64,000 bases of DNA from Eledone cirrhosa (GCA_964016885.1 OZ024762.1:22134001-22198000), one strand, 5' to 3'. Positions 1 through 53,031 are shown, counted from the first letter of the stretch. Notes: generated from the sequence alone by a model not told the origin. Translations and numbers: made by a program.

Positions 1-3000
1 TTTCACAGCTCTAGCATCACTCCTTCATAGGCTGACCAAGATATTCTCATGGAATGACCAAATGAGGTTTATTTTTCAACATGCAATATTGCACAGCTCT
101 AGCATCACTCCTTCATAGCCTGACCAAGATACGCTCATGGAATGACCAAATGAGGTTTATTTTTCAACATGCAAGATTTCACAGCTCTAGCATCACTCCT
201 TCATAGGCTGACCAAGATACTCTCATGGAATGACCAAATGAGGTTTATTTTTCAACATGCAAGATTGCACAGCTCTAGCATCACTCCTTCATAGGCTGAC
301 CAAGATACTCTCATGGAATGACCAATTGAGATTTATTTTTCAACATGCAAGATTGCACAGCTCTAGCATCACTCCTTCATAGGCTGACCAAGGTACTCTC
401 ATGGAATGACCAAATGAGGTATATTTTTCAACATGCAAGATTGCACAGCTCTAGCATCACTCCTTCATAGGCTGACCAATATACTCTCATGGAATGACCA
501 AATGAGGTTTATTTTTCAACATGCAAGATTGCACAGCTCTAGCATCACTCCTTCTCAGGCTGACCAAGATAATCTCATGGAATGACCAAATGGGGTATAT
601 TTTTCAACATGCAAGATTGCACAGCTCTAGCATCACTCCTTCATAGGCTGACCAAGATACTCTCATGGAATGACCAAATGAGGTTTATTTTTCAACATGC
701 AATATTGCACAGCTCTAGCATCACTCCTTCATAGGCTGACCAAGATACTCTCATGGAATGACCAAATGAGGTTTATTTTTCAACATGCAAGATTTCACAG
801 CTCTAGCATCACTCCTTCATAGGCTGACCAAGATACTCTCATGGAATGACCAAATGAGGTTTATTTTTCAACATGCAAGATTGCACAGCTCTAGCATCAC
901 TCCTTCATAGGCTGACCAAGATACTCTCATGGAATGACCAATTGAGGTTTATTTTTCAACATGCAAGATTGCACAGCTCTAGCATCACTCCTTCATAGGC
1001 TGACCAAGATACTCTCATGGAATGACCAAATGAGGTATATTTTTCAACATGCAAGATTGCACAGCTCTAGCATCACTCCTTCATAGGCTGACCAATATAA
1101 TCTCATGGAATGACCAAATGAGATTTATTTTTCAACATGCAAGATTGCACAGCCCTAGCATCACTCCTTCATAGGCTGACCAAGATACTGTCATGGAATG
1201 AACAAATGAGGTTTATTTTTCCACATGCAAGATTACACAGCTCTAGCATCACTCCTTCATAGGCTGACCAAGATACTCTCATGGAATGACCAAATGAGGT
1301 TTATTTTTCAACATGCAAGATTGCACAGCTCTAGCATCTATCCTTCATAGGCTGACCAAGATACTCTGATGGAATGACCAATTGAGGTTTATTTTTCAAC
1401 ATGCAAGATTGCACAGCTCTAGCATCACTCCTTCATAGGCTGACCAAGATACTCTCATGGAATGACCAAATGAGGTATATTTTTCAACTTGCAAGATTGC
1501 ACAGCTCTAGCATCACTCCTTCATAGGCTGAACAATATACTCTCATGGAATGACCAAATGAGGTTTATTTTTCAACATGCAAGATTTCACAGCTCTAGCA
1601 TCACTCCTTCATAGGCTGACCAAGATATTCTCATGGAATGACCAAATGAGGTTTATTTTTCAACAGGCAATATTGCACAGCTCTAGCATCACTCCTTCAT
1701 AGCCTGACCAAGATACGCTCATGGAATGACCAAATGAGGTTTATTTTTCAACATGCAAGATTTCACAGCTCTAGCATCACTCCTTCATAGGCTGACCAAG
1801 ATACTCTCATGGAATGAGGTTTATTTTTCAACATGCAATATTGCACAGCTCTAGCATCACTCCTTCATAGGCTGACCAAGATACTCTCATGGAATGACCA
1901 AATGAGGTTTATTTTTCAACATGCAAGATTTCACAGCTCTAGCATCACTCCTTCATAGGCTGACCAAGATACTCTCATGGAATGACCAAATGAGGTTTAA
2001 TTTTCAACATGCAAGATTGCACAGCTCTAGCATCACTCCTTCATAGGCTGACCAAGATACTCTCATGGAATGACCAATTGAGGTTTATTTTTCAACATGC
2101 AAGATTCACAGCTCTAGCATCACTCCTTCATAGGCTGACCAAGATACTCTCATGGAATGACCAAATGAGGTATATTTTTCAACATGCAAGATTGCACAGC
2201 TCTAGCATCACTCCTTCATAGGCTGACCAATATAATCTCATGGAATGACCAAATGAGATTTATTTTTCAACATGCAAGATTGCACAGCCCTAGCATCACT
2301 CCTTCATAGGCTGACCAAGATACTGTCATGGAATGAACAAATGAGGTTTATTTTTCCACATGCAAGATTACACAGCTCTAGCATCACTCCTTCAAAGGCT
2401 GACCAAGATACTCTCATGGAATGACCAAATGAGGTTTATTTTTCAACATGCAAGATTGCACAGCTCTAGCATCACTCCTTCATAGGCTGACCAAGATACT
2501 CTCATGGAATGACCAATTGAGATTTATTTTTCAACATGCAAGATTGCACAGCTCTAGCATCACTCCTTCATAGGCTGACCAAGATACTCTCATGGAATGA
2601 CCAAATGAGGTATATTTTTCAACATGCAAGATTGCACAGCTCTAGCATCACTCCTTCATAGGCTGACCAATATACTCTCATGGAATGACCAAATGAGGTT
2701 TATTTTTCAACATGCAAGATTGCACAGCTCTAGCATCACTCCTTCATAGGCTGACCAAGATAATCTCATGGAATGACCAAATGAGGTATATTTTTCAACA
2801 TGCAAGATTGCACAGCTCTAGCATCACTCCTTCATAGGCTGACCAATATACTCTCATGGAATGACCAAATGAGGTTTGTTTTTCAACATGCAAGATTTCA
2901 CAGCTCTAGCATCACTCCTTCATAGGCTGACCAAGATACTCTCATGGAATGACCAAATGAGGTTTTTTTTTCAACATGCAATATTGCACAGCTCTAGCAT

Positions 3001-3768
3001 CACTCCTTCATAGGCTGACCAAGATACTCTCATGGAATGACCAAATGAGGTTTATTTTTCAACATGCAAGATTTCACAGCTCTAGCATCACTCCTTCATA
3101 GGCTGACCAAGATACTCTCATGGAATGACCAAATGAGGTTTATTTTTCAACATGCAAGATTGCACAGTTCTAGCATCACTCCTTCATAGGCTGACCAAGA
3201 TACTCTCATGGAATGACCAATTGAGGTTTATTTTTCAACATTCAATATTGCACAGCTCTAGCATCACTCCTTCATAGGCTGACCAAGATACTCTCATGGA
3301 ATGACCAAATGAGGTATATTTTTCAACATGCAAGATTTCACAGCTCTAGCATCACTCCTTCATAGGCTGACCAATATAATCTCATGGAATGACCAAATGA
3401 GTTTTATTTTTCAACATGCAAGATTGCACAGCTCTAGCATCACTCCTTCATAGGCTGACCAAGATACTGTCATGGAATGAACAAATGAGGTTTATTTTTC
3501 AACATGCAAGATTACACAGCTCTAGCATCACTCCTTCATAGGCTGACCAAGATACTCTCATGGAATGACCAAATGAGGTTAATATTTCACATGCAAGATT
3601 GCACAGCTCTAGCATTACTCCTTCATAGGCTGACCAAGATACTCTCATGGAATGACCAAATGAGGTTTATTTTTCAACATGCAAGATTTCACAGCTCTAA
3701 CATCACTCCTTCATAGGTTTATTTTTCAACATGCAAGATTGCACAGCCCTAGCATCACTCTTTCATAG

Positions 3769-3799
3769 TGAGCCTATGAACTTTTAAGCCTACCTTATA
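3769..3799 (-). mobile_element. Mariner-like TIR plus TA (left end of hub 1; the same motif is at the left end of all 11 hubs)
   Basis: TGAGCCTATGAACTTTTAAGCCTACCTTATA. Its reverse complement TATAAGGTAGGCTTAAAAGTTCATAGGCTCA aligns by eye, ungapped, to the recalled Himar1 end TAACAGGTTGGCTGATAAGTCCCCGGTCTGA at about 20/31 positions. Confidence 0.7.
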
Positions 3800-4272
3800 T
3801 GCAAATTATTAAGAAATTCGAAATAATTTTTGCACCCATTTTTGCGATTAAGTAAAGACGGAGTTATCGTTCTTGAGATTTCGGCTCGTGGAAATTTAAG
3901 GAACTGATGTCGCTAAATCGCCAAATCATTTACCTGCCCTGTTGCCTCATGGGAGGGTAATGGCTGCCTTTTATTTTTTAAACGATGGCAGATTCTTTAG
4001 TTTCTTTCGCAGAATCTTGTTCCTTGTTTCATATAAGTAAATAATTAAAACATTTTGGCGAGAAGGATATTGAAAAGTCTGCTGTTGTTTTAAAAAAATA
4101 AAAGGCAGCCATTACCCTCCCATGGTGCAACGGGGCAGGTAAATGATTTGGCGATTTAGCGACATCAGTTCCTCAAATTTCTCCGATCCGAAATCTCAAG
4201 AACGATAACTCCGTCTTTACTTAATCGCAAAAATGGGTGCAAAAATTATTTCGAATTTCTTAATAATTTGCA

Positions 4273-4303
4273 TATAAGGTAGGCTTAAAAGTTCATAGGC
4301 TCA
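4273..4303 (+). mobile_element. Mariner-like TIR plus TA (right end of hub 1; the same motif is at the right end of all 11 hubs)
   Basis: TATAAGGTAGGCTTAAAAGTTCATAGGCTCA is the exact reverse complement of 3769-3799 and runs directly into satellite sequence (CTATGAA...). Confidence 0.7.
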
Positions 4304-7300
4304 CTATGAAAGAGTGATGCTAGGGCTGTGCAATCTTGCATGTTGAAAAATAAACCTATGAAGGAGTGATGTTAGAGCTGTGAAATCTTGCATGTTGAAA
4401 AATAAACCTCATTTGGTCATTCCATGAGAGTATCTTGGTCAGCCTATGAAGGAGTAATGCTAGAGCTGTGCAATCTTGCATGTGAAATATTAACCTCATT
4501 TGGTCATTCCATGAGAGTATCTTGGTCAGCCTATGAAGGAGTGATGCTAGAGCTGTGTAATCTTGCATGTTGAAAAATAAACCTCATTTGTTCATTCCAT
4601 GACAGTATCTTGGTCAGCCTATGAAGGAGTGATGCTAGAGCTGTGCAATCTTGCATGTTGAAAAATAAACCTATGAAGGAGTGATGTTAGAGCTGTGCAA
4701 TCTTGCGTGTTGAAAAATAAACCTCATTTGGTCATTCCATGAGAGTATCTTGGTCAGCCTATGAAGGAGTAATGCTAGAGCTGTGCAATCTTGCATGTGA
4801 AATATTAACCTCATTTGGTCATTCCATGAGAGTATCTTGGTCAGCCTATGAAGGAGTGATGCTAGAGCTGTGTAATCTTGCATGTTGAAAAATAAACCTC
4901 ATTTGTTCATTCCATGACAGTATCTTGGTCAGCCTATGAAGGAGTGATGCTAGAGCTGTGCAATCTTGCATGTTGAAAAATAAACCTATGAAGGAGTGAT
5001 GTTAGAGCTGTGCAATCTTGCGTGTTGAAAAATAAACCTCATTTGGTCATTCCATGAGAGTATCTTGGTCAGCCTATGAAGGAGTAATGCTAGAGCTGTG
5101 AAATCTTGCATGTGAAATATTAACCTCATTTGGTCATTCCATGAGAGTATCTTAGTCAGCCTATGAAGGAGTGATGCTAGAGCTGTGCAATCTTGCATGT
5201 TGAAAAATAAACCTCATTTGGTCATTCCATGAGAGTATATTGGTCAGCCTATGAAGGAGTGATGCTAGAGCTGTGCAATCTTGCATGTTGAAAAATATAC
5301 CTCATTTGGTCATTCCATGAGAATATCTTGGTCAGCCTATGAAGGAGTGATGCTAGAGCTGTGCAATCTTGCATGTTGAAAAATAAACCTCAATTGGTCA
5401 TTCCATGAGAGTATCTTGGTCAGCCTATGAAGGAGTGATGCTAGAGCTGTGCAATCTTGCATGTTGAAAAATAAACCTCAGTTGGTCATTCCATGAGAGT
5501 ATCTTGGTCAGCCTATGAAGGAGTGATGCTAGAGCTGTGAAATCTTGCATGTTGAAAAATAAACCTCATTTGGTCATTCCATGAGAGTATCTTGGTCAGC
5601 CTATGAAGGAGTGATGCTAGAGCTGTGTAATCTTGCATGTTGAAAAATAAACCTCATTTGTTCATTCCATGACAGTATCTTGGTCAGCCTATGAAGGAGT
5701 GATGCTAGAGCTGTGCAATCTTGCATGTTGAAAAATAAACCTATGAAGGAGTGATGTTAGAGCTGTGCAATCTTGCGTGTTGAAAAATAAACCTCATTTG
5801 GTCATTCCATGAGAGTATCTTGGTCAGCCTATGAAGGAGTAATGCTAGAGCTGTGAAATCTTGCATGTGAAATATTAACCTCATTTGGTCATTCCATGAG
5901 AGTATCTTAGTCAGCCTATGAAGGAGTGATGCTAGAGCTGTGCAATCTTGCATGTTGAAAAATAAACCTCATTTGGTCATTCCATGAGAGTATATTGGTC
6001 AGCCTATGAAGGAGTGATGCTAGAGCTGTGCAATCTTGCATGTTGAAAAATATACCTCATTTGGTCATTCCATGAGAGTATCTTGGTCAGCCTATGAAGG
6101 AGTGATGCTAGAGCTGTGCAATCTTGCATGTTGAAAAATAAACCTCAATTGGTCATTCCATGAGAGTATCTTGGTCAGCCTATGAAGGAGTGATGCTAGA
6201 GCTGTGCAATCTTGCATGTTGAAAAATAAACCTCAGTTGGTCATTCCATGAGAGTATCTTGGTCAGCCTATGAAGGAGTGATGCTAGAGCTGTGAAATCT
6301 TGCATGTTGAAAAATAAACCTCATTTGGTCATTCCATGAGAGTATCTTGGTCAGCCTATGAAGGAGTGATGCTAGAGCTGTGCAATCTTGCATGTTGAAA
6401 AATAAACCTCATTTGGTCATTCCATGAGAGTATATTGGTCAGCCTATGAAGGAGTGATGCTAGAGCTGTGCAATCTTGCATGTTGAAAAATATGCCTCAT
6501 TTGGTCATTCCATGAGATTATCTTGGTCAGCCTATGAAGGAGTGATGCTAGAGCTGTGCAATCTTGCATGTTGAAAAATAAACCTCATTTGGTCATTCCA
6601 TGAGAGTATCTTGGTCAGCCTATGAAGGAGTGATGCTAGAGCTGTGCAATCTTGCATGTTGAAAAATAACCCTCATTTGGTCATTCCATGAAAGTATCTA
6701 TCTAAGCCTATGAAGGAGTGATGCTAGAGCTGTGAAATCTTGCATGTTGCAAAATAAACCTCATTTGATCATTCCATGAGACTATCTTGGTCAGCTTATG
6801 AATGAGTGATGCTAGGGCTGTGCAATCTTGCATGTTGAAAAATAAACCTCATTTGGTCATTCCATGAGAGTATCTTGGTCAGCCTATGAAGGAGTGATGC
6901 TAGAGCTGTGAAATCTTGCATGTTGAAAAATAAACCTCATTTGGTCATTCCATAAGAGTATCTTGGTCAGCCTATGAAGGAGTGATGCTAGAGGTGTGCA
7001 ATCTTGCATGTTGAAAAATAAACCTCATTTGGTCATTCCATGAGAGTATCTTGTTCAGCCTATGAAGGAGTGAAGTTAGAGCTGTGCAATCTTGCATGTT
7101 GAAAAATAAACCTCATTTGGTCATTCCATGAGAGTATCTTGGTCAGCCTATGAAGGAGTGATGCTAGAGCTGTGAAATCTTGCATGTTGAAAAATAAACC
7201 TCATTTGGTCATTCCATGAGAGTATCTTGGTCAGCCTATGAAGGAGTGATGGTAGAACTGTGCAATCTTGCATGTTGAAAAATAAACCTCATTTGGTCAT

Positions 7301-7515
7301 TCCATGAGAGTATCCTGGTCAGCCCATGAAGGATTGATGATAGAGCTGTGAAATCTTGCATGTTGAAAAATAAACCGCATTTGGTCATTCCATGAGAGTA
7401 TGTTGGTCAGCCTATGAAGGAGTGATGCTAGAGCTGTGCAATCTTGCATGTTGCAAAATAAACCTCATTTGTCATTCCATGAGAGTATCTTGGTCAGCCT
7501 ATGAAGGAGTGATGC

Positions 7516-7573
7516 TATATATATATATAATTATATATACATGTATATATATATATACATGTATATATATATA
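7516..7573. repeat. 58-bp TA linker 1, reverse-to-forward switch
   Basis: (TA)7-AT-(TA)4-CATG-(TA)7-CATG-(TA)6 lies between ...GAGTGATGC and CTCTCATGG... Confidence 0.95.
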
Positions 7574-10500
7574 CTCTCATGGAATGACCAAATGAGTTTT
7601 ATTTTTCCACATGCAAGATTGCACAGCTCTAGCATCACTCCTTCATAGGCTGACCAAGATACTCTCATGGAATGACCAAATGAGGTTTATTTTTCCACAT
7701 GCAAGATTGCACAGCTCTAGCATCACTCCTTCATAGGCTGACCAAGATACTCTCATGGAATGACCAAATGAGGTTTATTTTTCAACATGCAAGATTGCAC
7801 AGCTCTAGCATCACTCCTTCATAGGCTGAGCAAGATACTCTCATGGAATGACCAAATGAGGTTGTTTTTTTTCAGCATGCAAGATTGCACAGCGCTAGCA
7901 TCACTCCTACATAGGCTGACCAAGATACTCTCATGGAATGACCAAATGAGTTTATTTTTCAACATGCAATATTGCACAGCTCTAGCATCACTCCTTCATA
8001 GGCTGACCAAGATACCCTCATGGAATGACCAAATGAGGTTTATTTTTCAACATGCAAGATTGCACAGCTCTAGCATCACTCCTTCATAGGCTGACCAAGA
8101 TACTCTGATGGAATGACCAATTGAGGTTTATTTTTCAACATGCAAGATTGCACAGCTCTAGCATCACTCCTTCATAGGCTGACCAAGATACTCTCATGGA
8201 ATGACCAAATGAGGTATATTTTTCAACTTGCAAGATTGCACAGCTCTAGCATCACTCCTTCATAGGCTGAACAATATACTCTCATGGAATGACCAAATGA
8301 GGTTTATTTTTCAACATGCAAGATTTCACAGCTCTAGCATCACTCCTTCATAGGCTGACCAAGATATTCTCATGGAATGACCAAATGAGGTTTATTTTTC
8401 AACATGCAATATTGCACAGCTCTAGCATCACTCCTTCATAGCCTGACCAAGATACGCTCATGGAATGACCAAATGAGGTTTATTTTTCAACATGCAAGAT
8501 TTCACAGCTCTAGCATCACTCCTTCATAGGCTGACCAAGATACTCTCATGGAATGACCAAATGAGGTTTATTTTTCAACATGCAAGATTTCACAGCTCTA
8601 GCATCACTCCTTCATAGGCTGACCAAGATACTCTCATGGAATGTCCAAATGAGGTTTTTTTTTCAACATGCAATATTGCACAGCTCTAGCATCACTCCTT
8701 CATAGGCTGACCAAGATACTCTCATGGAATGACCAAATGAGGTTTATTTTTCAACATGCAAGATTTCACAGCTCTAGCATCACTCCTTCATAGGCTGACC
8801 AAGATACTCTCATGGAATGACCAAATGAGGTTTATTTTTCAACATGCAATATTGCACAGCTCTAGCATCACTCCTTCATAGGCTGACCAAGATACTCTCA
8901 TGGAATGACCAATTGAGGTTTATTTTTCAACATGCAAGATTGCACAGCTCTAGCATCACTCCTTCATAGGCTGACCAAGATACTCTCATGGAATGACCAA
9001 ATGAGGTTTATTTTTCAACATGCAAGATTGCACAGCTCTAGCATCACTCCTTCATAGGCTGACCAAGATACTCTCATGGAATGACCAATTGAGGTTTATT
9101 TTACAACATGCAAGATTGCACAGTTCTAGCATCATTCCTTCATAAGCTGACCAAGATACTCTCATGGAATGACCAAATGGGGTTATTTTTCAACATGCAA
9201 GATTGCACAGCTCTAGCATCACTCCTTCATAGGCTGACCAAGATACTCTCATGTAATGACCAAATGAGGTTTATTTTTCGACATGCAAGATTGCACATCT
9301 CTAGCATCACTCCTTCATAGGCTGACCAAGATACTCTCATGGAATGACCAAATGAGGTTTATTTTTCAACATGCAAGATTTCACAGCTCTAGCATCACTC
9401 CTTCATAGGCTGACCAAGATACTCTCATGGAATGACCAAATGAGGTTTATTTTTCAACATGCAAGATTGCACAGCTCTAGCATCACTCCTTCATAGGCTG
9501 ACCAAGATACTCTCATGGAATGACCAAATGAGGTATATTTTTCGACATGCAAGATTGCACATCTCTAGCATCACTCCTTCATAGGCTGACCAAGATACTC
9601 TCATGGAATGACCAAATGAGGTTTATTTTTCAACATGCAAGATTGCACAGCCTTAGCGTCACTCCTTCATAAGCTGACCAAGATATTCTCATGGAATGAT
9701 CAAATGAGGTTTATTTTTCAACATGCAATATTGCACAGCTCTAGCATCACTCCTTCATAGGCTGAGCAAGATACTCTCATGGAATGACCAAATGAGGTTG
9801 TTTTTTTTCAGCATGCAAGATTGCACAGCGCTAGCATCACTCCTACATAGGCTGACCAAGATACTCTCATGGAATGACCAAATGAGTTTATTTTTCAACA
9901 TGCAATATTGCACAGCTCTAGCATCACTCCTTCATAGGCTGACCAAGATACCCTCATGGAATGACCAAATGAGGTTTATTTTTCAACATGCAAGATTGCA
10001 CAGCTCTAGCATCACTCCTTCATAGGCTGACCAAGATACTCTGATGGAATGACCAATTGAGGTTTATTTTTCAACATGCAAGATTGCACAGCTCTAGCAT
10101 CACTCCTTCATAGGCTGACCAAGATACTCTCATGGAATGACCAAATGAGGTATATTTTTCAACTTGCAAGATTGCACAGCTCTAGCATCACTCCTTCATA
10201 GGCTGAACAATATACTCTCATGGAATGACCAAATGAGGTTTATTTTTCAACATGCAAGATTTCACAGCTCTAGCATCACTCCTTCATAGGCTGACCAAGA
10301 TATTCTCATGGAATGACCAAATGAGGTTTATTTTTCAACATGCAATATTGCACAGCTCTAGCATCACTCCTTCATAGCCTGACCAAGATACGCTCATGGA
10401 ATGACCAAATGAGGTTTATTTTTCAACATGCAAGATTTCACAGCTCTAGCATCACTCCTTCATAGGCTGACCAAGATACTCTCATGGAATGACCAAATGA

Positions 10501-12363
10501 GGTTTATTTTTCAACATGCAAGATTGCACAGCTCTAGCATCACTCCTTCATAGGCTGACCAAGATACTCTCATGGAATGACCAATTGAGATTTATTTTTC
10601 AACATGCAAGATTGCACAGCTCTAGCATCACTCCTTCATAGGCTGACCAAGATACTCTCATGGAATGACCAAATGGGTATATTTTTCAACATGCAAGATT
10701 GCACAGCTCTAGCATCACTCCTTCATAGGCTGACCAATATACTCTCATGGAATGACCAAATGAGGTTTATTTTTCAACATGCAAGATTGCACAGCTCTAG
10801 CATCACTCCTTCACAGGCTGACCAAGATAATCTCATGGAATGACCAAATGAGGTATATTTTTCAACATGCAAGATTGCACAGCTCTAGCATCACTCCTTC
10901 ATAGGCTGACCAATATACTCTCATGGAATGACCAAATGAGGTTTATTTTTCAACATGCAAGATTTCACAGCTCTAGCATCACTCCTTCATAGGCTGACCA
11001 AGATACTCTCATGGAATGACCAAATGAGGTTTATTTTTCAACATGCAATATTGCACAGCCCTAGCATCACTCGTTCATAGGCTGACCAAGATACTCTCAT
11101 GGAATGACCAAATGAGGTTTATTTTTCAACATGCAAGATTTCACAGCTCTAGCATCACTCCTTCATAGGCTGACCAAGATACTCTCATGGAATGACCAAA
11201 TGAGGTTTATTTTTCAACATGCAAGATTGCACAGCTCTAGCATCACTCCTTCATAGGCTGACCAAGATACTCTCATGGAATGACCAATTGAGGTTTATTT
11301 TTCAACATGCAAGATTGCACAGCTCTAGCATCACTCCTTCATAGGCTGACCAAGATACTCTCATGGAATGACCAAATGAGGTATATTTTTCAACATGCAA
11401 GATTGCACAGCTCTAGCATCACTCCTTCATAGGCTGACCAATATAATCTCATGGAATGACCAAATGAGATTTATTTTTCAACATGCAAGATTGCACAGCT
11501 CTAGCATCACTCCTTCATAGGCTGACCAAGATACTGTCATGGAATGAACAAATGAGGTTTATTTTTCAACATGCAAGATTGCACAGCTCTAGCATCACTC
11601 CTTCATAGGCTGACCAAGATACTCTCATGGAATGACCAAATGAGGTTTATTTTTCAACATGCAAGATTGCACAGTTCTAGCATCACTCCTTCATAGGCTG
11701 ACCAAGATACTCTCATGGAATGACCAAATGAGGTATATTTTTCAACATGCAAGATTGCACAGCTCTAGCATCACTCCTTCATAGGCTGACCAAGATACTC
11801 TCATGGAATGACCAAATGAGGTTTATTTTTCAACATGCAAGATTGCACAGCTCTAGCATCACTCCTTCATAGGCTGACCAAGATACTCTCATGGAATGAC
11901 CAAATGAGGTATATTTTTCAACATGCAAGATTTCACAGCTCTAGCATCACTCCTTCATAGGCTGACCAATATAATCTCATGGAATGACCAAATGAGTTTT
12001 ATTTTTCAACATGCAAGATTGCACAGCTCTAGCATCACTCCTTCATAGGCTGACCAAGATACTGTCATGGAATGAACAAATGAGGTTTATTTTTCAACAT
12101 GCAAGATTACACAGCTCTAGCATCACTCCTTCATAGGCTGACCAAGATACTCTCATGGAATGACCAAATGAGGTTAATATTTCACATGCAAGATTGCACA
12201 GCTCTAGCATTACTCCTTCATAGGCTGACCAAGATACTCTCATGGAATGACCAAATGAGGTTTATTTTTCAACATGCAAGATTTCACAGCTCTAACATCA
12301 CTCCTTCATAGGTTTATTTTTCAACATGCAAGATTGCACAGCCCTAGCATCACTCTTTCATAG

Positions 12364-12920
12364 TGAGCCTATGAACTTTTAAGCCTACCTTATTTGCAAA
12401 TTATTAAGAAATTCGAAATAATTTTTGCACCCATTTTTGCGATTAAGTAAAGACGGAGTTATCGTTCTTGAGATTTCGGCTCGTGGAAATTTAAGGAACT
12501 GATGTCGCTAAATCGCCAAATCATTTACCTGCCCCGTTGCCTCATGGGAGGGTAATGGCTGCCTTTTATTTTTTAAACGATGGCAGATTCTTTAGTTTCT
12601 TTCGCAGAATCTTGTTCCTTGTTTCATATAAGTAAATAATTAAAACATTTTGGCGAGAAGGATATTGAAAAGTCTGCTGTTGTTTTAAAAAAATAAAAGG
12701 CAGCCATTACCCTCCCATGGTGCAACGGGGCAGGTAAATGATTTGGCGATTTAGCGACATCAGTTCCTCAAATTTCTCCGAGCCGAAATCTCAAGAACGA
12801 TAACTCCGTCTTTACTTAATCGCAAAAATGGGTGCAAAAATTATTTCGAATTTCTTAGTAATTGTTTGTACATACTTACATTGTTTGCATATAAGGTAGG
12901 CTTAAAAGTTCATAGGCTCA
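12364..12920. repeat. Palindromic hub 2 (557 bp)
   Basis: Same as hub 1 plus the 22-bp TTGTTTGTACATACTTACATTG in the right arm. Confidence 0.95.
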
Positions 12921-14132
12921 CTATGAAAGAGTGATGCTAGGGCTATGCAATCTTGCATGTTGAAAAATAAACCTATGAAGGAGTGATGTTAGAGCTGTGC
13001 AATCTTGCATGTTGAAAAATAAACCTCATTTGGTCATTCCATGAGAGTATCTTGGTCAGCCTATGAAGGAGTGATGCTAGAGCTGTGCAATCTTGCATGT
13101 TGAAAAATATGCCTCATTTGGTCATTCCATGAGATTATCTTGGTCAGCCTATGAAGGAGTGATGCTAGAGCTGTGCAATCTTGCATGTTGAAAAATAAAC
13201 CTCATTTGGTCATTCCATGAGAGTATCTTGGTCAGCCTATGAAGGAGTGATGCTAGAGCTGTGCAATCTTGCATGTTGAAAAATAACCCTCATTTGGTCA
13301 TTCCATGAAAGTATCTATCTAAGCCTATGAAGGAGTGATGCTAGAGCTGTGAAATCTTGCATGTTGCAAAATAAACCTCATTTGATCATTCCATGAGACT
13401 ATCTTGGTCAGCTTATGAATGAGTGATGCTAGGGCTGTGCAATCTTGCATGTTGAAAAATAAACCTCATTTGGTCATTCCATGAGAGTATCTTGGTCAGC
13501 CTATGAAGGAGTGATGCTAGAGCTGTGAAATCTTGCATGTTGAAAAATAAACCTCATTTGGTCATTCCATAAGAGTATCTTGGTCAGCCTATGAAGGAGT
13601 GATGCTAGAGGTGTGCAATCTTGCATGTTGAAAAATAAACCTCATTTGGTCATTCCATGAGAGTATCTTGTTCAGCCTATGAAGGAGTGAAGTTAGAGCT
13701 GTGCAATCTTGCATGTTGAAAAATAAACCTCATTTGGTCATTCCATGAGAGTATCTTGGTCAGCCTATGAAGGAGTGATGCTAGAGCTGTGAAATCTTGC
13801 ATGTTGAAAAATAAACCTCATTTGGTCATTCCATGAGAGTATCTTGGTCAGCCTATGAAGGAGTGATGCTAGAACTGTGCAATCTTGCATGTTGAAAAAT
13901 AAACCTCATTTGGTCATTCCATGAGAGTATCCTGGTCAGCCCATGAAGGATTGATGCTAGAGCTGTGAAATCTTGCATGTTGAAAAATAAACCGCATTTG
14001 GTCATTCCATGAGTGTATGTTGGTCAGCCTATGGAGGAGTGATGCTAGAGCTGTGCAATCTTGCATGTTGCAAAATAAACCTCATTTGTCATTCCATGAG
14101 AGTATCTTGGTCAGCCTATGAAGGAGTGATGC

Positions 14133-14190
14133 TATATATATATATAATTATATATACATGTATATATATATATACATGTATATATATATA
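14133..14190. repeat. 58-bp TA linker 2
   Basis: Identical to linker 1. Confidence 0.95.
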
Positions 14191-15902
14191 CTCTCATGGA
14201 ATGACCAAATGAGTTTTATTTTTCCACATGCAAGATTGCACAGCTCTAGCATCACTCCTTCATAGGCTGACCAAGATACTCTCATGGAATGACCAAATGA
14301 GGTTTATTTTTCCACATGCAACATTGCACAGCTCTAGCATCACTCCTTCATAGGCTGACCAAGATACTCTCATGGAATGACCAAATGAGGTTTATTTTTC
14401 AACATGCAAGATTGCACAGCTCTAGCATCACTCCTTCATAGGCTGACCAATATACTCTCATGGAATGACTAAATGAGGTTTATTTTTCAACATGCAAGAT
14501 TTCACAGCTCTAGCATCACTCCTCCATAGGCTGACCAAGATATTCTCATGGAATGACCAAATGAGGTTTATTTTTCAACATGCAATATTGCACAGCTCTA
14601 GCATCACTCCTTCATAGGCTGACCAAGATATTCTCATGGAATGACCAAATGAGGTATATTTTTCAACATGCAAGATTGCACAGCTCCAGCATCACTCCTT
14701 CATAGGCTGACCAATATACTCTCATAGAATGACCAAATGAGGTTTATTTTTCAACATGCAAGATTGCACAGCTCTAGCATCACTCCTTCATAGGCTGACC
14801 AAGATACTGTCATGGAATGAACAAATGAGGTTTATTTTTCAACATGCAAGATTGCACACCTCTAGCATCACTCCTTCATAGGCTGACCAAGATACTCTCA
14901 TGGAAAGACCAAATGAGGTTTTTTTTTCAACATGCAAGATTGCACAGCTCTAGCATCACTCCTTCATAGGCTGAGCAAGATACTCTCATGGAATGACCAA
15001 ATGAGGTTGTTTTTTTTCAACATGCAAGATTGCACAGCTCTAGCATCACTCCTACATAGGCTGACCAAGATACTCTCATGGAATGACCAAATGAGGTTTA
15101 TTTTTCAACATGCAATATTGCACAGCTCTAGCATCACTCCTTCATAGGCTGACCAAGATACTCTCATGGAATGACCAAATGAGGTTTATTTTTCAACATG
15201 CAAGATTTCACAGTTCTAGCATCACTCCTTCATAGGCTGACCAAGATACTCTCATGGAATGACCAAATGAGGTTTATTTTTCAACATGCAAGATTGCACA
15301 GCTCTAGCATCACTCCTTCATAGTCTGACCAAGATACTCTGATGGAATGACCAATTGAGGTTTATTTTTCAACATGCAAGATTGCACAGCTCTAGCATCA
15401 CTCCTTCATAGGCTGACCAAGATACTCTCATGGAATGACCAAATGAGGTATATTTTTCAACATGCAAGATTTCACAGCTCTAGCATCACTCCTTCATAGG
15501 CTGACCAATATAATCTCATGGAATGACCAAATGAGTTTTATTTTTCAACATGCAAGATTGCACAGCTCTAGCATCACTCCTTCATAGGCTGACCAAGATA
15601 CTGTCATGGAATGAACAAATGAGGTTTATTTTTCAACATGCAAGATTACACAGCTCTAGCATCACTCCTTCATAGGCTGACCAAGATACTCTCATGGAAT
15701 GACCAAATGAGGTTAATATTTCACATGCAAGATTGCACAGCTCTAGCATTACTCCTTCATAGGCTGACCAAGATACTCTCATGGAATGACCAAATGAGGT
15801 TTATTTTTCAACATGCAAGATTTCACAGCTCTAACATCACTCCTTCATAGGTTTATTTTTCAACATGCAAGATTGCACAGCCCTAGCATCACTCTTTCAT
15901 AG

Positions 15903-16459
15903 TGAGCCTATGAACTTTTAAGCCTACCTTATATGCAAATTATTAAGAAATTCGAAATAATTTTTGCACCCATTTTTGCGATTAAGTAAAGACGGAGTTA
16001 TCGTTCTTGAGATTTCGGCTCGTGGAAATTTAAGGAACTGATGTCGCTAAATCGCCAAATCATTTACCTGCCCCGTTGCCTCATGGGAGGGTAATGGCTG
16101 CCTTTTATTTTTTAAACGATGGCAGATTCTTTAGTTTCTTTCGCAGAATCTTGTTCCTTGTTTCATATAAGTAAATAATTAAAACATTTTGGCGAGAAGG
16201 ATATTGAAAAGTCTGCTGTTGTTTTAAAAAAATAAAAGGCAGCCATTACCCTCCCATGGTGCAACGGGGCAGGTAAATGATTTGGCGATTTAGCGACATC
16301 AGTTCCTCAAATTTCTCCGAGCCGAAATCTCAAGAACGATAACTCCGTCTTTACTTAATCGCAAAAATGGGTGCAAAAATTATTTCGAATTTCTTAGTAA
16401 TTGTTTGTACATACTTACATTGTTTGCATATAAGGTAGGCTTAAAAGTTCATAGGCTCA
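15903..16459. repeat. Palindromic hub 3 (557 bp)
   Basis: Copy of hub 2, 3539 bp downstream. Confidence 0.95.
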
Positions 16460-17671
16460 CTATGAAAGAGTGATGCTAGGGCTATGCAATCTTGCATGTT
16501 GAAAAATAAACCTATGAAGGAGTGATGTTAGAGCTGTGCAATCTTGCATGTTGAAAAATAAACCTCATTTGGTCATTCCATGAGAGTATCTTGGTCAGCC
16601 TATGAAGGAGTGATGCTAGAGCTGTGCAATCTTGCATGTTGAAAAATATGCCTCATTTGGTCATTCCATGAGATTATCTTGGTCAGCCTATGAAGGAGTG
16701 ATGCTAGAGCTGTGCAATCTTGCATGTTGAAAAATAAACCTCATTTGGTCATTCCATGAGAGTATCTTGGTCAGCCTATGAAGGAGTGATGCTAGAGCTG
16801 TGCAATCTTGCATGTTGAAAAATAACCCTCATTTGGTCATTCCATGAAAGTATCTATCTAAGCCTATGAAGGAGTGATGCTAGAGCTGTGAAATCTTGCA
16901 TGTTGCAAAATAAACCTCATTTGATCATTCCATGAGACTATCTTGGTCAGCTTATGAATGAGTGATGCTAGGGCTGTGCAATCTTGCATGTTGAAAAATA
17001 AACCTCATTTGGTCATTCCATGAGAGTATCTTGGTCAGCCTATGAAGGAGTGATGCTAGAGCTGTGAAATCTTGCATGTTGAAAAATAAACCTCATTTGG
17101 TCATTCCATAAGAGTATCTTGGTCAGCCTATGAAGGAGTGATGCTAGAGGTGTGCAATCTTGCATGTTGAAAAATAAACCTCATTTGGTCATTCCATGAG
17201 AGTATCTTGTTCAGCCTATGAAGGAGTGAAGTTAGAGCTGTGCAATCTTGCATGTTGAAAAATAAACCTCATTTGGTCATTCCATGAGAGTATCTTGGTC
17301 AGCCTATGAAGGAGTGATGCTAGAGCTGTGAAATCTTGCATGTTGAAAAATAAACCTCATTTGGTCATTCCATGAGAGTATCTTGGTCAGCCTATGAAGG
17401 AGTGATGCTAGAACTGTGCAATCTTGCATGTTGAAAAATAAACCTCATTTGGTCATTCCATGAGAGTATCCTGGTCAGCCCATGAAGGATTGATGCTAGA
17501 GCTGTGAAATCTTGCATGTTGAAAAATAAACCGCATTTGGTCATTCCATGAGTGTATGTTGGTCAGCCTATGAAGGAGTGATGCTAGAGCTGTGCAATCT
17601 TGCATGTTGCAAAATAAACCTCATTTGTCATTCCATGAGAGTATCTTGGTCAGCCTATGAAGGAGTGATGC

Positions 17672-17729
17672 TATATATATATATAATTATATATACATGT
17701 ATATATATATATACATGTATATATATATA
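17672..17729. repeat. 58-bp TA linker 3
   Basis: Identical to linker 1. Confidence 0.95.
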
Positions 17730-20700
17730 CTCTCATGGAATGACCAAATGAGTTTTATTTTTCCACATGCAAGATTGCACAGCTCTAGCATCACTCCTTC
17801 ATAGGCTGACCAAGATACTCTCATGGAATGACCAAATGAGGTTTATTTTTCCACATGCAACATTGCACAGCTCTAGCATCACTCCTTCATAGGCTGACCA
17901 AGATACTCTCATGGAATGACCAAATGAGGTTTATTTTTCAACATGCAAGATTGCACAGCTCTAGCATCACTCCTTCATAGGCTGACCAATATACTCTCAT
18001 GGAATGACTAAATGAGGTTTATTTTTCAACATTCAAGATTTCACAGCTCTAGCATCACTCCTCCATAGGCTGACCAAGATATTCTCATGGAATGACCAAA
18101 TGAGGTTTATTTTTCAACATGCAATATTGCACAGCTCTAGCATCACTCCTTCATAGGCTGACCAAGATATTCTCATGGAATGACCAAATGAGGTATATTT
18201 TTCAACATGCAAGATTGCACAGCTCCAGCATCACTCCTTCATAGGCTGACCAATATACTCTCATAGAATGACCAAATGAGGTTTATTTTTCAACATGCAA
18301 GATTGCACAGCTCTAGCATCACTCCTTCATAGGCTGACCAAGATACTGTCATGGAATGAACAAATGAGGTTTATTTTTCAACATGCAAGATTGCACACCT
18401 CTAGCATCACTCCTTCATAGGCTGACCAAGATACTCTCATGGAAAGACCAAATGAGGTTTTTTTTTCAACATGCAAGATTGCACAGCTCTAGCATCACTC
18501 CTTCATAGGCTGAGCAAGATACTCTCATGGAATGACCAAATGAGGTTGTTTTTTTTCAACATGCAAGATTGCACAGCTCTAGCATCACTCCTACATAGGC
18601 TGACCAAGATACTCTCATGGAATGACCAAATGAGGTTTATTTTTCAACATGCAATATTGCACAGCTCTAGCATCACTCCTTCATAGGCTGACCAAGATAC
18701 TCTCATGGAATGACCAAATGAGGTTTATTTTTCAACATGCAAGATTTCACAGTTCTAGCATCACTCCTTCATAGGCTGACCAAGATACTCTCATGGAATG
18801 ACCAAATGAGGTTTATTTTTCAACATGCAAGATTGCACAGCTCTAGCATCACTCCTTCATAGGCTGACCAAGATACTCTGATGGAATGACCAATTGAGGT
18901 TTATTTTTCAACATGCAAGATTGCACAGCTCTAGCATCACTCCTTCATAGGCTGACCAAGATACTCTCATGGAATGACCAAATGAGGTATATTTTTCAAC
19001 TTGCAAGATTGCACAGCTCTAGCATCACTCCTTCATAGGCTGACCAATATACTCTCATGGAATGACCAAATGAGGTTTATTTTTCAACATGCAAGATTTC
19101 ACAGCTCTAGCATCACTCCTTCATAGGCTGACCAAGATACTCTCATGGAATGACCAAATGAGGTTTATTTTTCAACATGCAATATTGCACAGCTCTAGCA
19201 TCACTCCTTCATAGGCTGACCAATATAGTCTCATGGAATGACCAAATGAGGTTTATTTTTCAACATGCAAGATTTCACAGCTCTAGCATCACTCCTTCAT
19301 AGGCTGACCAAGATACTCTCATGGAATGACCAAATGAGGTTTATTTTTCAACATGCAAGATTGCACAGCTCTAGCATCACTCCTTCATAGGCTGACCAAG
19401 ATACTCTCTTGGAATGACCAATTGAGATTTATTTTTCAACATGCAAGATTGCACAGCTCTAGCATCACTCCTTCATAGGCTGACCAAGATACTCTCATGG
19501 AATGACCAAATGAGGTATATTTTTCAACATGCAAGATTGCACAGCTCTGGCATCACTCCTTCATAGGCTGACCAATATACTCTCATGGAATGACCAAATG
19601 AGGTTTATTTTTCAACATGCAAGATTGCACAGCTCTAGCATAATTCCTTCATAGGCTGACCAAGATAATCTCATGGAATGACCAAATGAGGTATATTTTT
19701 CAACATGCAAGATTGCACAGCTCTAGCATCACTCCTTCATAGGCTGACCAATATACTCTCATGGAATGACCAAATGAGGTTTATTTTTCAACATGCAAGA
19801 TTTCACAGCTCTAGCATCACTCCTTCATAGACTGACCAAGATACTCTCATGGAATGACCAAATGAGGTTTATTTTTCAACATGCAATATTGCACAGCTCT
19901 AGCATCACTCCTTCATAGGCTGACCAAGATACTCTCATGGAATGACCAAATGAGGTTTATTTTTCAACATGCAAGATTTCACAGCTCTAGCATCACTCCT
20001 TCATAGGCTGACCAAGATACTCTCATGGAATGACCAAATGAGGTTTATTTTTCAACATGCAAGATTGCACAGCTCTAGCATCACTTCTTCATAGGCTGAC
20101 CAAGATACTCTCATGGAATGACCAATTGAGGTTTATTTTTAAAACATGCAAGATTGCACAGCTCTAGCATCACTCCTTCATAGGCTGACCAAGATACTCT
20201 CATGGAATGACCAAATGAGGTATATTTTTCAACATGCAAGATTGCACAGCTCTAGCATCACTCCTTCATAGGCTGACCAATATAATCTCATGGAATGACC
20301 AAATGAGATTTATTTTTCAACATGCAAGATTGCACAGCTCTAGCATCACTCCTTCATAGGCTGACCAAGATACTGTCATGGAATGAACAAATGAGGTTTA
20401 TTTTTCAACATGCAAGATTACACAGCTCTAGCATCACTCCTTCATAGGCTGACCAAGATACTCTCATGGAATGACCAAATGAGGTTAATATTTCACATGC
20501 AAGATTGCACAGCTCTAGCATTACTCCTTCATAGGCTGACCAAGATACTGTCATGGAATGAACAAATGAGGTTTATTTTTCAACATGCAAGATTACACAG
20601 CTCTAGCATCACTCCTTCATAGGCTGACCAAGATACTCTCATGGAATGACCAAATGAGGTTAATATTTCACATGCAAGATTGCACAGCTCTAGCATTACT

Positions 20701-20849
20701 CCTTCATAGGCTGACCAAGATACTCTCATGGAATGACCAAATGAGGTTTATTTTTCAACATGCAAGATTTCACAGCTCTAACATCACTCCTTCATAGGTT
20801 TATTTTTCAACATGCAAGATTGCACAGCCCTAGCATCACTCTTTCATAG

Positions 20850-21406
20850 TGAGCCTATGAACTTTTAAGCCTACCTTATATGCAAATTATTAAGAAATTC
20901 GAAATAATTTTTGCACCCATTTTTGCGATTAAGTAAAGACGGAGTTATCGTTCTTGAGATTTCGGCTCGTGGAAATTTAAGGAACTGATGTCGCTAAATC
21001 GCCAAATCATTTACCTGCCCCGTTGCCTCATGGGAGGGTAATGGCTGCCTTTTATTTTTTAAACGATGGCAGATTCTTTAGTTTCTTTCGCAGAATCTTG
21101 TTCCTTGTTTCATATAAGTAAATCATTAAAACATTTTGGCGAGAAGGATATTGAAAAGTCTGCTGTTGTTTTAAAAAAATAAAAGGCAGCCATTACCCTC
21201 CCATGGTGCAACGGGGCAGGTAAATGATTTGGCGATTTAGCGACATCAGTTCCTCAAATTTCTCCGAGCCGAAATCTCAAGAACGATAACTCCGTCTTTA
21301 CTTAATCGCAAAAATGGGTGCAAAAATTATTTCGAATTTCTTAGTAATTGTTTGTACATACTTACATTGTTTGCATATAAGGTAGGCTTAAAAGTTCATA
21401 GGCTCA
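20850..21406. repeat. Palindromic hub 4 (557 bp)
   Basis: Same termini, arms and centre orientation as hub 2. Confidence 0.95.
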
Positions 21407-23145
21407 CTATGAAAGAGTGATGCTAGGGCTATGCAATCTTGCATGTTGAAAAATAAACCTATGAAGGAGTGATGTTAGAGCTGTGCAATCTTGCATGTTG
21501 AAAAATAAACCTCATTTGGTCATTCCATGAGAGTATCTTGGTCAGCCTATGAAGGAGTAATGCTAGAGCTGTGAAATCTTGCATGTGAAATATTAACCTC
21601 ATTTGATCATTCCATGAGAGTATCTTGGTCAGCCTATGAAGGAGTGATGCTAGAGGTGTGCAATCTTGCATGTTGAAAAATAAACCTCATTTGGTCATTC
21701 CATGAGAGTATCTTGGTCAGCCTATGAAGGAGTGATGCTAGAGCTGTGTAATCTTGCATGTTGAAAAATAAACCTCATTTGTTCATTCCATGACAGTATC
21801 TTGGTCAGCCTATGAAGGAGTGATGCTAGAGCTGTGCAATCTTGCATGTTGAAAAATAAACCTCATTTGGTCATTCCATGAGAGTATATTGGTCAGCCTA
21901 TGAAGGAGTGATGCTAGAGCTGTGCAATCTTGCATGTTGAAAAATATACCTCATTTGGTCATTCCATGAGAGTATCTTGGTCAGCCTATGAAGGAGTGAT
22001 GCTAGAGCTGTGCAATCTTGCATGTTGAAAAATAAACCTCAGTTGGTCATTCCATGAGAGTATCGTGGTCAGCCTATGAAGGAGTGATGCTAGAGCTGTG
22101 AAATCTTGCATGTTGAAAAATAAACCTCATTTGGTCATTCCATGAGAGTATCTTGGTCAGCCTATGAAGGAGTGATGCTAGAGCTGTGCAATATTGCATG
22201 TTGAAAAATAAACCTCATTTGGTCATTCCATGAGAGTATCTTGGTCAGCCTATGAAGGAGTGATGCTAGAGCTGTGCAATCTTGCATGTTGAAAAATAAA
22301 CCTCATTTGGTCATTCCATGAGAGTATATTGGTCAGCCTATGAAGGAGTGATGCTAGAGCTGTGCAATCTTGCATGTTGAAAAATATACCTCATTTGGTC
22401 ATTCCATGAGAGTATCTTGGTCAGCCTATGAAGGAGTGATGCTAGAGCTGTGCAATCTCGCATGTTGAAAAATAACCCTCATTTGGTCATTCCATGAAAG
22501 TATCTATCTAAGCCTATGAAGGAGTGATGCTAGAGCTGTGAAATCTTGCATGTTGCAAAATAAACCTCATTTGATCATTCCATGAGACTATCTTGGTCAG
22601 CTTATGAATGAGTGATGCTAGGGCTGTGCAATCTTGCATGTTGAAAAATAAACCTCATTTGGTCATTCCATGAGAGTATCTTGGTCAGCCTATGAAGGAG
22701 TGATGCTAGAGCTGTGAAATCTTGCATGTTGAAAAATAAACCTCATTTGGTCATTCCATGAGAGTATCTTGGTCAGCCTATGAAGGAGTGATGCTAGAGG
22801 TGTGCAATCTTGCATGTTGAAAAATAAACCTCATTTGGTCATTCCATGAGAGTATCTTGTTCAGCCTATGAAGGAGTGATGTTAGAGCTGTGCAATCTTG
22901 CATGTTGAAGAATAAACCTCATTTGGTCATTCCATGAGAGTATCTTGGTCAGCCTTTGAAGGAGTGATGCTAGAGCTGTGAAATCTTGCATGTTGAAAAA
23001 TAAACCTCATTTGGTCATTCCATGAGAGTATCTTGGTCAGCCTATGAAGGAGTGATGCTAGAACTGTGCAATCTTGCATGTTGCAAAATAAACCTCATTT
23101 GTCATTCCATGAGAGTATCTTGGTCAGCCTATGAAGGAGTGATGC

Positions 23146-23203
23146 TATATATATATATAATTATATATACATGTATATATATATATACATGTATATATAT
23201 ATA
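23146..23203. repeat. 58-bp TA linker 4
   Basis: Identical to linker 1. Confidence 0.95.
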
Positions 23204-26200: not shown

Positions 26201-27730
26201 TCATGGAATGACCAAATGAGGTTTATTTTTCAACATGCAAGATTGCACAGCTCTAGCATCACTCCTTCATAGGCTGACCAAGATACTCTCTTGGAATGAC
26301 CAATTGAGATTTATTTTTCAACATGCAAGATTGCACAGCTCTAGCATCACTCCTTCATAGGCTGACCAAGATACTCTCATGGAATGACCAAATGAGGTAT
26401 ATTTTTCAACATGCAAGATTGCACAGCTCTGGCATCACTCCTTCATAGGCTGACCAATATACTCTCATGGAATGACCAAATGAGGTTTATTTTTCAATAT
26501 GCAAGATTGCACAGCTCTAGCATAATTCCTTCATAGGCTGACCAAGATAATCTCATGGAATGACCAAATGAGGTATATTTTTCAACATGCAAGATTGCAC
26601 AGCTCTAGCATCACTCCTTCATAGGCTGACCAATATACTCTCATGGAATGACCAAATGAGGTTTATTTTTCAACATGCAAGATTTCACAGCTCTAGCATC
26701 ACTCCTTCATAGACTGACCAAGATACTCTCATGGAATGACCAAATGAGGTTTATTTTTCAACATGCAATATTGCACAGCTCTAGCATCACTCCTTCATAG
26801 GCTGACCAAGATACTCTCATGGAATGACCAAATGAGGTTTATTTTTCAACATGCAAGATTTCACAGCTCTAGCATCACTCCTTCATAGGCTGACCAAGAT
26901 ACTCTCATGGAATGACCAAATGAGGTTTATTTTTCAACATACAAGATTGCACAGCTCTAGCATCACTTCTTCATAGGCTGACCAAGATACTCTCATGGAA
27001 TGACCAATTGAGGTTTATTTTTCAACATGCAAGATTGCACAGCTCTAGCATCACTCCTTCATAGGCTGACCAAGATACTCTCATGGAATGACCAAATGAG
27101 GTATATTTTTCAACATGCAAGATTGCACAGCTCTAGCATCACTCCTTCATAGGCTGACCAATATAATCTCATGGAATGACCAAATGAGATTTATTTTTCA
27201 ACATGCAAGATTGCACAGCTCTAGCATCACTCCTTCATAGGCTGACCAAGATACTGTCATGGAATGAACAAATGAGGTTTATTTTTCAACATGCAAGATT
27301 ACACAGCTCTAGCATCACTCCTTCATAGGCTGACCAAGATACTCTCATGGAATGACCAAATGAGGTTAATATTTCACATGCAAGATTGCACAGCTCTAGC
27401 ATTACTCCTTCATAGGCTGACCAAGATACTGTCATGGAATGAACAAATGAGGTTTATTTTTCAACATGCAAGATTACACAGCTCTAGCATCACTCCTTCA
27501 TAGGCTGACCAAGATACTCTCATGGAATGACCAAATGAGGTTAATATTTCACATGCAAGATTGCACAGCTCTAGCATTACTCCTTCATAGGCTGACCAAG
27601 ATACTCTCATGGAATGACCAAATGAGGTTTATTTTTCAACATGCAAGATTTCACAGCTCTAACATCACTCCTTCATAGGTTTATTTTTCAACATGCAAGA
27701 TTGCACAGCCCTAGCATCACTCTTTCATAG

Positions 27731-28287
27731 TGAGCCTATGAACTTTTAAGCCTACCTTATATGCAAATTATTAAGAAATTCGAAATAATTTTTGCACCCA
27801 TTTTTGCGATTAAGTAAAGACGGAGTTATCGTTCTTGAGATTTCGGCTCGTGGAAATTTAAGGAACTGATGTCGCTAAATCGCCAAATCATTTACCTGCC
27901 CCGTTGCCTCATGGGAGGGTAATGGCTGCCTTTTATTTTTTAAACGATGGCAGATTCTTTAGTTTCTTTCGCAGAATCTTGTTCCTTGTTTCATATAAGT
28001 AAATAATTAAAACATTTTGGCGAGAAGGATATTGAAAAGTCTGCTGTTGTTTTAAAAAAATAAAAGGCAGCCATTACCCTCCCATGGTGCAACGGGGCAG
28101 GTAAATGATTTGGCGATTTAGCGACATCAGTTCCTCAAATTTCTCCGAGCCGAAATCTCAAGAACGATAACTCCGTCTTTACTTAATCGCAAAAATGGGT
28201 GCAAAAATTATTTCGAATTTCTTAGTAATTGTTTGTACATACTTACATTGTTTGCATATAAGGTAGGCTTAAAAGTTCATAGGCTCA
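27731..28287. repeat. Palindromic hub 5 (557 bp)
   Basis: Same termini, arms and centre orientation as hub 2. Confidence 0.95.
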
Positions 28288-30114: not shown

Positions 30115-30172
30115 TATATATATATATAATTATATATACATGTATATATATATATACATGTATATATATATA
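30115..30172. repeat. 58-bp TA linker 5
   Basis: Identical to linker 1. Confidence 0.95.
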
Positions 30173-34001: not shown

Positions 34002-34059
34002 TATATATATATATAATTATATATACATGTATATATATATATACATGTATATATATATA
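34002..34059. repeat. 58-bp TA linker 6
   Basis: Identical to linker 1. Confidence 0.95.
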
Positions 34060-37540: not shown

Positions 37541-37598
37541 TATATATATATATAATTATATATACATGTATATATATATATACATGTATATATATATA
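37541..37598. repeat. 58-bp TA linker 7
   Basis: Identical to linker 1. Confidence 0.95.
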
Positions 37599-53005: not shown

Positions 53006-53031
53006 ATCCGACACTGTTCCTACTATATCAA

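Follow-up and report, generated by a model that had tools for sequence, protein, structure and literature searches.

MITE-derived satellites are already known, and several described systems resemble the repeat reported here. The miDNA4 element of Xenopus tropicalis is a Tc1/mariner MITE that carries one to many internal units; short direct repeats have been invoked as the trigger, and arrays stripped of their ends turn into satellites (Scalvenzi and Pollet 2014, summarised in PMC12628747 and PMC9659126). For Xstir/Xmix, also of Xenopus, MITE, composite and purely tandem forms coexist and the unit comes from the MITE interior (PMC12628747). Tetris/TIR-220 of Drosophila virilis has defined termini and 8-10-bp target duplications (PMC4079207). 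Tandem dimers of transposable elements (TEs) arise by double insertion, which provides many independent seeds of which few expand (McGurk and Barbash, PMC5932611). In the ODIRA process of yeast, a pre-existing interrupted inverted repeat centres a larger and more perfect inverted duplication (PMC4689423). Furthermore, a table of Rhodnius mariners gives the terminal inverted repeats (TIRs) of irritans elements and of an unclassified lineage, and mariners are described there as rarely yielding short MITEs (PMC4678618). We found no account of the 88-bp repeat from a cephalopod in the literature; its mariner and MITE may stand in Dfam or Repbase.

The 88-bp satellite of Eledone cirrhosa shares with miDNA4 the variable internal arrays in a MITE, a short direct repeat as the proposed trigger and the end loss that leads to a satellite. 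Whereas the miDNA4 type has a captured, pre-existing tandem repeat as its unit, that of Eledone consists of interior sequence of the MITE itself, with a 7-bp word of the TIR as the point of joining and no need for foreign sequence, and there are two unit sizes, 143 and 88 bp, each of which reached tens of kilobases. The likeness to Tetris lies in inverted arms with tandem arrays made from terminal sequence, which outgrow the element, whereas in Eledone the palindromes inspected have no terminus in common, a separate mariner MITE supplied the arrays and the inversion is centred on an unrelated palindrome. Xstir/Xmix has been proposed to need two neighbouring elements acting via a stem-loop, but at least some of the Eledone duplications occurred within single dispersed copies. 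TE dimers repeat whole elements with their TIRs, while the Eledone units exclude most of both TIRs and involve no transposition. ODIRA is described near replication origins with an extrachromosomal intermediate; in Eledone the end architecture alone is seen, with a hub of ~500 bp. Compared with irritans mariners of Rhodnius, the length of ~1.27 kb is alike and the TIR agrees at ~19-20 of 28 bases with two listed ones, but mariners there seldom give short MITEs, while that of Eledone produced a 198-bp family of many copies. The novelty of the case lies in the putative trigger built into the element and in its intermediates, which form a series of natural replicates.

The window is the whole stretch of 64,000 nt that was analysed, C23:22134001-22198000 of the 3.0-Gb Eledone cirrhosa genome, whose contigs are numbered C1, C2 and so on. 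We use A for half A of the unit (39 bp), B for half B (49 bp) and M for a 55-bp middle. The features around the first hub are listed in Table 1.

Table 1. Features of the 88-bp array in the window (positions counted from the first base of the window).
Feature	Position	Strand	Remark
Tandem run of palindromic core (array, TIR, hub, TIR, array, linker)	1..52380	.	hubs in one orientation, 2835-8595 bp apart
Mirror copy of TA and truncated 5' TIR, other flank of hub	3768..3797	-	end-motif match
First hub, imperfect palindrome of 477 bp that does not come from the mariner, probable centre of fold-back	3798..4274	.	arms ~87% alike
TA target dinucleotide of founding MITE insertion	4275..4276	+	in C24/C26 hubs TA, then whole 31-bp TIR
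Mariner 5' TIR minus outer CGA (28 of 31 bp)	4277..4304	+	ends on the C of the first CTATGAA
52-bp variant unit, half A and 13 bp of half B	4304..4355	+	deletion of 36 bp, flanked by CCT triplets
Right-hand array of hub 1, 38 units	4304..7498	+	ends in TA-rich linker
Half A, 39 bp directly after mariner 5' TIR (5' UTR start)	4356..4394	+	32-38/39 matches, 24/24 copies
Half B, V-E-K-stop codons, 3' UTR and first 6 bp of 3' TIR	4395..4443	+	33-49/49 matches, 24/24 copies
CTATGAA tandem junction, where the 3' TIR of one unit overlaps the following unit's 5' subterminal sequence	4444..4450	+	
58-bp TA-rich linker, arrays tail to tail	7516..7573	.	identical at 11 places

Bases 1-52380 are 88-bp array, in blocks that alternate in direction; the run starts 6.7 kb upstream of the window and is 59 kb long in total as assembled. 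We parsed 516 units in the window array, 452 of them of 88 bp, 31 of 87 bp, 24 of 52 bp and nine others, and the 88-mers deviate by 2.7% from their own column majority. With head-to-tail blocks of up to 120 such similar monomers, this is satellite DNA. A 29-mer end motif occurs 22 times in the window free of mismatches, facing outward from 11 hubs. Apart from the first, these hubs are 499 bp long, all lie in the same orientation and show 0-8 differences from each other. The run can therefore be described as a palindromic unit repeated directly in tandem. The predicted fold of the 499-bp hub has -217 kcal/mol, with a z of -40 against 100 shuffles. The array acts as selfish or neutral repeat DNA and no function is implied.

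An earlier note on this DNA had given the order of bases at 4273-4700 correctly, as the window sequence confirms. Its cut between TA and TIR has to be moved to the one in Table 1, because the window carries a TIR variant that has lost the outer CGA. The sequence that it read outward from the hub also stands, except that the first unit after each window TIR is the 52-bp variant and not a full monomer.

Several further observations concern the run and its surroundings. The stretch 35859-48018 of the window is a higher-order duplication, in which identical 2923-bp units alternate with a variant hub type. The linker at the left end of the run (C23:22127264) is of the CA type usual in C24 arrays. 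The right end (window 52290-52600, a 93-bp repeat) matches an array end at C24:8.35 Mb (L266), and these resemblances suggest a possible exchange between contigs. Bases 52400-64000 of the window are a microsatellite-rich flank with tandem repeats of 93, 115, 118 and 184 bp, the last of which we take to be a SINE/LINE-like tail. Rfam gave no matches in the window and in two palindrome-arm stretches, and tblastn at E 10 found no transposase remnant in the window.

A chimera of long reads or an assembly artefact appears extremely unlikely as the source of the inverted layout around the hubs. Two hub-to-hub units of the window (within 35859-48018) are identical over 2923 bp and one palindrome elsewhere is 100% identical up to an assembly gap, as an artefact might produce, but neither length nor fixed variants agree between left and right arms, the hubs carry nested substitutions, and the layout recurs with locus-specific variants on four contigs. 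Moreover, the A|B junction is spanned by a short-read contig of run X1, which may come from the sample that was assembled. Bridging contigs with fewer than 31 letters on one side were excluded, which removed one over the joint of hub and TIR (X1) and one over the A|B joint in organism B (X4). Joints at which the reads go back 88 bases fit both unit sizes. By loose ends, contigs from public reads place the MITE also in organism D and the long element in organisms B and C; among the listed public runs there was no RNA run holding the repeat.

The parent of the repeat is a mariner. A query with one full-length mariner returned 30 loci, of which we used the 24 that span nearly the whole query and excluded the partial copies L256-L261. 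The first lead to these dispersed copies was a mariner 5' fragment at a related locus. Half A stands directly after the 5' TIR in all 24 near-full-length copies, with 32-38 of its 39 bases matching, and half B directly before the rest of the 3' TIR, again in all 24, with 33-49 of 49 bases. Gapped fits to 120 shuffled copies reached at most 32 (half A) and 37 (half B) matches, at arbitrary places. As the halves always lie at the ends of the 24 copies and the shuffled fits are scattered, the match is not due to chance, and the 88-bp monomer is almost certainly derived from mariner ends. The earlier note had proposed this origin and asked for mariners with half A after the 5' TIR and half B after a transposase end; elements of ~1.27 kb of just this build, with half B after ...GDYVEK-stop, are what the genome holds.

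The mariner extracts measure 1303-1405 bp including 115 bp of flank, for an element of ~1.27 kb. An intact 351-aa relative, P0001, which ends in GDYVEK and has Mos1 as its best solved relative, can be aligned to every one of the 24 copies over 332-351 aa; all the copies are broken, with a longest open frame of 192 codons. The expected C-terminus G-x-Y-V-E-K is common, as 53 of 106 transposase relatives end in G-x-YVEK. The D,D34D spacing is 34 in all 83 scorable relatives out of the 106; among the 24 genome copies it is 34 in three and 33 in two. The Transposase_1 domain (Pfam: PF01359) scored over the cut-off in five of 12 stop-free fragments and the Mos1-type HTH (Pfam: PF17906) under the cut-off in one. 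The TIR of 31 bp, flanked by TA, lies within the 20-40 bp of mariners. The element is thus a DD34D mariner by its TIR and TA, by its length of ~1.3 kb with a ~350-aa ORF region and by its catalytic spacing. Compared by eye, its TIR agrees with two irritans TIRs at about 19-20 of 28 positions; an unclassified lineage is equally close over the first 19 bases, so the TIR does not fix the subfamily. Three fish-named transposase relatives (P0011, P0018 and P0077) are 69-71% identical to a genome fragment and as close to it as the one named after Octopus vulgaris, a closeness that may, judged from the sequences, reflect horizontal transfer.

Between the mariner and the satellite stands a 198-bp MITE with the layout 31-bp TIR, A, 55-bp M, B, TIR, first seen as two short elements with both TIRs on C24. 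The MITE search gave 3182 first-look candidates, and all 40 that were scored span ~200 bp. We analysed 30 copies, which lie on many contigs in unrelated flanks and are short and non-coding, as MITEs are; 26 of 30 left ends and 26 of 30 right ends have the TA, and M is 55 bp long in 22 of 30. A CA dinucleotide of half B, present in 22 of the 24 full-length copies, is absent from all 30 MITEs and from the satellite, so the direct parent is the MITE. Only one of the 88 columns differs between the satellite and the MITE majority, and over these columns the MITE copies deviate by 4.7% from their own majority, compared with 2.7% for the satellite. All 88 satellite columns map to the mariner's own ends and none to a captured pre-existing repeat. 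At the 42 examined loci with a tandem junction, no B of the full-length (CA) type was found before the junction. The earlier note had expected an internally deleted mini-mariner as the parent; the direct form is this 198-bp MITE, which has M between the halves.

Some MITE copies are rearranged in other ways. In L151:3980-4430 (C24) two whole MITEs stand in tandem with a TA run between them, as from a double insertion, and L101:1500-1715 (C5) has two 3' ends inverted. Copies that are not related to each other (L012:270-290, the 3' end of L237, the 5' end of L309) and the 3' remnant of the satellite have lost an identical 16 bp from the TIR, with direct repeats of a short word inside the TIR on either side of the loss.

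The MITE carries its own putative trigger for tandem duplication. The CTATGAA that starts with the last base of the 5' TIR has an inverted counterpart in seven bases of this TIR, and a 7-bp stem with a 5-base loop is predicted at the inner edge. Since a word of the TIR is thereby present in inverted copy at the 5' inner edge, CTATGAA forms a direct repeat with the 3' TIR across the MITE interior. In the 3' TIR the second CTATGAA comes after 6 bp, and not at the very start as had been supposed, at 143 bp from the first; as the repeat at which units join, CTATGAA had been recognised correctly. The junction expected from a 143-bp duplication occurs 1983 times in the genome. Among the 100 of these that were listed, 39 lie in one array on C1 and 61 in 56 dispersed loci, of which we examined 42. 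At least two whole 143-type units are present in 30 of the 42, often as TIR-(AMB)n-TIR, and MITEs with n=2-8 internal 143-bp units occur on several chromosomes; none of the examined dispersed loci of the 143-type has an 88-bp unit. With 143-bp units at n=2-8 and 88-bp units at n=1-18, the family shows the variable-number arrays between MITE ends that define the miDNA4 type. The C1 array is a satellite of the 143-bp unit (C1:27456790-27511200; L318, L319, L274-L299) whose ends lie ~54 kb apart; in the ends and two inner stretches its periods are mostly 137-143 bp and also 282-285 bp. It looks older than the 88-bp satellite.

The 88-mer is the 143-mer minus the 55-bp M, cut between two ATG triplets, the G of the GTT in half B being common to the ATG junction. 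The A|B junction occurs 1841 times in the genome, corresponding to at least 1841 units, with none on C1-C19 and C21 and two on C20. Both C20 junctions belong to one copy (L262) that has both TIRs and reads TIR-AMB-AB-AB-TIR, that is 143+88+88. It is the sole TIR-bounded element outside the hub family with 88-bp units, and it keeps M in its first unit. An exact gapped pattern for a stand-alone TIR-A-B-TIR had a single match, a MITE that carries two 3' ends after rearrangement; diverged copies escape such a pattern. The C20 copy and the lack of a plain TIR-A-B-TIR by exact pattern favour duplication before deletion, and we lean moderately towards this order. This reverses the sequence of deletion, mini-mariner and slippage proposed in the earlier note, which has become less likely because the 143-bp unit is common genome-wide and unit 1 of the C20 copy keeps M. 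The C20 copy carries different TIR variants from the hub family and may have an independent origin, so it marks a possible path and does not prove that of the hub lineage.

It is possible, if doubtful, that one MITE lost M first and that CTATGAA slippage in the resulting mini-mariner gave the 88-bp array directly. This order needs one event fewer, elements with n=2-3 are common, a one-unit TIR-A-B-remnant exists (L380) and all 103 hub-adjacent first units inspected are free of M. On the other hand, the exact pattern found no stand-alone TIR-A-B-TIR apart from the differently rearranged match, and on the contigs below C22 the C20 copy is the one place with an A|B junction, there in tandem and with M kept in unit 1. 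The 3' TIR of L380 has lost the second CTATGAA; it therefore cannot be the starting form, and can be read more easily as a contraction. A second 88-bp origin at L334 was considered and rejected, as its deletion differs. The C20 element (L262:4800-5170) lies just after an exon-like stretch translating EGADMIMVKPGMPYLDV, which appears to resemble porphobilinogen synthase/ALAD.

In six of 17 two-unit loci both units have four or more private variants in common, whereas 435 between-locus pairs of units have at most three, so these units were duplicated (or converted) in place; the other 11 loci, with fewer than four common variants, are uninformative or older. We consider it unlikely that the units arose by recombination of two MITE copies or by excision of a circle at CTATGAA and its rolling-circle reinsertion. 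Such origins would fit the differences between first and inner units: at one diagnostic column of the hub family first units often have G where inner units have A, a pattern not expected from simple slippage that starts at the first unit, and in the C20 copy four of 39 A positions differ. They would also fit several two-unit loci with units as divergent as copies from different loci. However, private variants are common to the units of the six loci and of most longer arrays, and the arrays remain between their own TIRs and TA sites. The junctions left by slippage, sister exchange and circle reinsertion look alike.

The 88-bp family appears to descend from one insertion beside the palindromic hub. 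The satellite-type TIR occurs 118 times in the genome, and the 100 occurrences listed are all on C22, C23, C24 and C26. Each of the 103 that were inspected adjoins a hub, where two classes were read by eye because the pattern missed a substitution. After 1-18 units, 21 elements close with an identical 3' TIR remnant, TA and identical flank; C24:10762818 was left out of this count as it is the opposite 5' TIR. For the 3' flank we obtained 55 candidates, of which the 40 scored are all on C23, C24 and C26, and among the matches inspected the empty site of the founding insertion was not found. Most ends on C24 and C26 have the full 31-bp TIR, which in its C24 form differs from the MITE column majority at four of 33 columns, while the window and most C22 and C23 ends have lost the outer CGA.

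At several loci the core is the centre of a palindrome of 30-43 kb, with arms 82-96% alike between loci; other loci are tandem runs like that of the window, and some have an array on one side only. The hub arms are ~87% alike, whereas the DNA just outside them is 97.8-100% identical between the two arms at five loci, as expected if, in the manner of ODIRA, an older inverted repeat seeded a larger inversion or corrects it. We think it likely that the family spread over small chromosomes around the palindromic hub by inverted and tandem duplication and independently of a transposase.

A very unlikely alternative is that the palindrome centred on the hub, or the TIR-array-linker-array-TIR segment between hubs, is a foldback-like transposon moved by transposase. 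The structure has long inverted arms with internal tandem repeats and resembles foldback elements with modular arms, it is found at dozens of places on four contigs, and between hubs the two 5' TIRs face outward correctly, each beside TA. Yet none of the 103 satellite-type TIRs is away from a hub, the window TIR lacks its outer three bases, none of the 24 mariner copies has an open frame of more than 192 codons and none of the 100 listed ends is on the large contigs. Among the palindromes inspected no common terminus was seen: four giant ones end at different points, as do two smaller ones, so that the six end at different sequences and only one small one is bounded by TA. As defined termini with a target duplication are a mark of foldback elements, the hub-centred unit is not classed as a foldback transposon.

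The giant palindromes include C23:9372366-9415571 and others at 3.94-3.97, 7.36-7.39, 11.78-11.82 and 17.59-17.62 Mb. Within them, blocks of GC-rich, promoter-like or tRNA-like sequence are repeated in either orientation. Eight giant-palindrome stretches contain no HTGEKP zinc-finger linkers, and coding content of the arms was rejected, since their long open frames are microsatellite or LINE-like fragments. Single-armed relatives of the hub that have no mariner occur on C13, C22 and C23 (L152:4420-4814 on C13, L203, L205 and L230).

Taken together, it is likely that the 88-mer, made of two mariner subterminal stretches, arose by CTATGAA slippage inside the 198-bp MITE, probably followed by the 55-bp loss. 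Replication slippage or unequal sister exchange at CTATGAA would duplicate the MITE interior, a deletion between the two ATG triplets would trim the 143-bp unit to 88 bp, and unequal exchange would then expand and homogenise the array. One MITE-derived copy would have stood at a TA next to the hub, an inverted repeat of 500 bp that was already present, and fold-back at this hub would copy the array to the other side. Inverted and tandem segmental duplication, and not transposase, would have carried hub and arrays over C22-C26 and built the 59-kb run. More tentatively, the built-in 7-bp stem may make the MITE a satellite nursery at many sites, and the separate 500-bp palindrome might then, as a transposase-free vehicle, mirror and multiply one such array and carry it between small chromosomes via ODIRA-like fold-back.

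The conversion of a TE to a tandem array is an open question that is usually argued from one or two end products. Here a single genome holds the DD34D mariner as parent, the 198-bp MITE as its miniature, dozens of sampled short expansions and a large satellite of the 143-bp unit, the 143+88+88 copy as an intermediate of two sizes, and TIR-(88)n-TIR-remnant elements with n=1-18 together with the second large satellite. These natural replicates allow rates of birth, growth and shortening to be measured. They also give a testable rule, namely that elements in which a word of the TIR recurs in inverted form immediately next to it, on the inner side, should give rise to satellites, and the mirror layout centred on the hub offers a testable route by which a satellite may spread independently of transposase.
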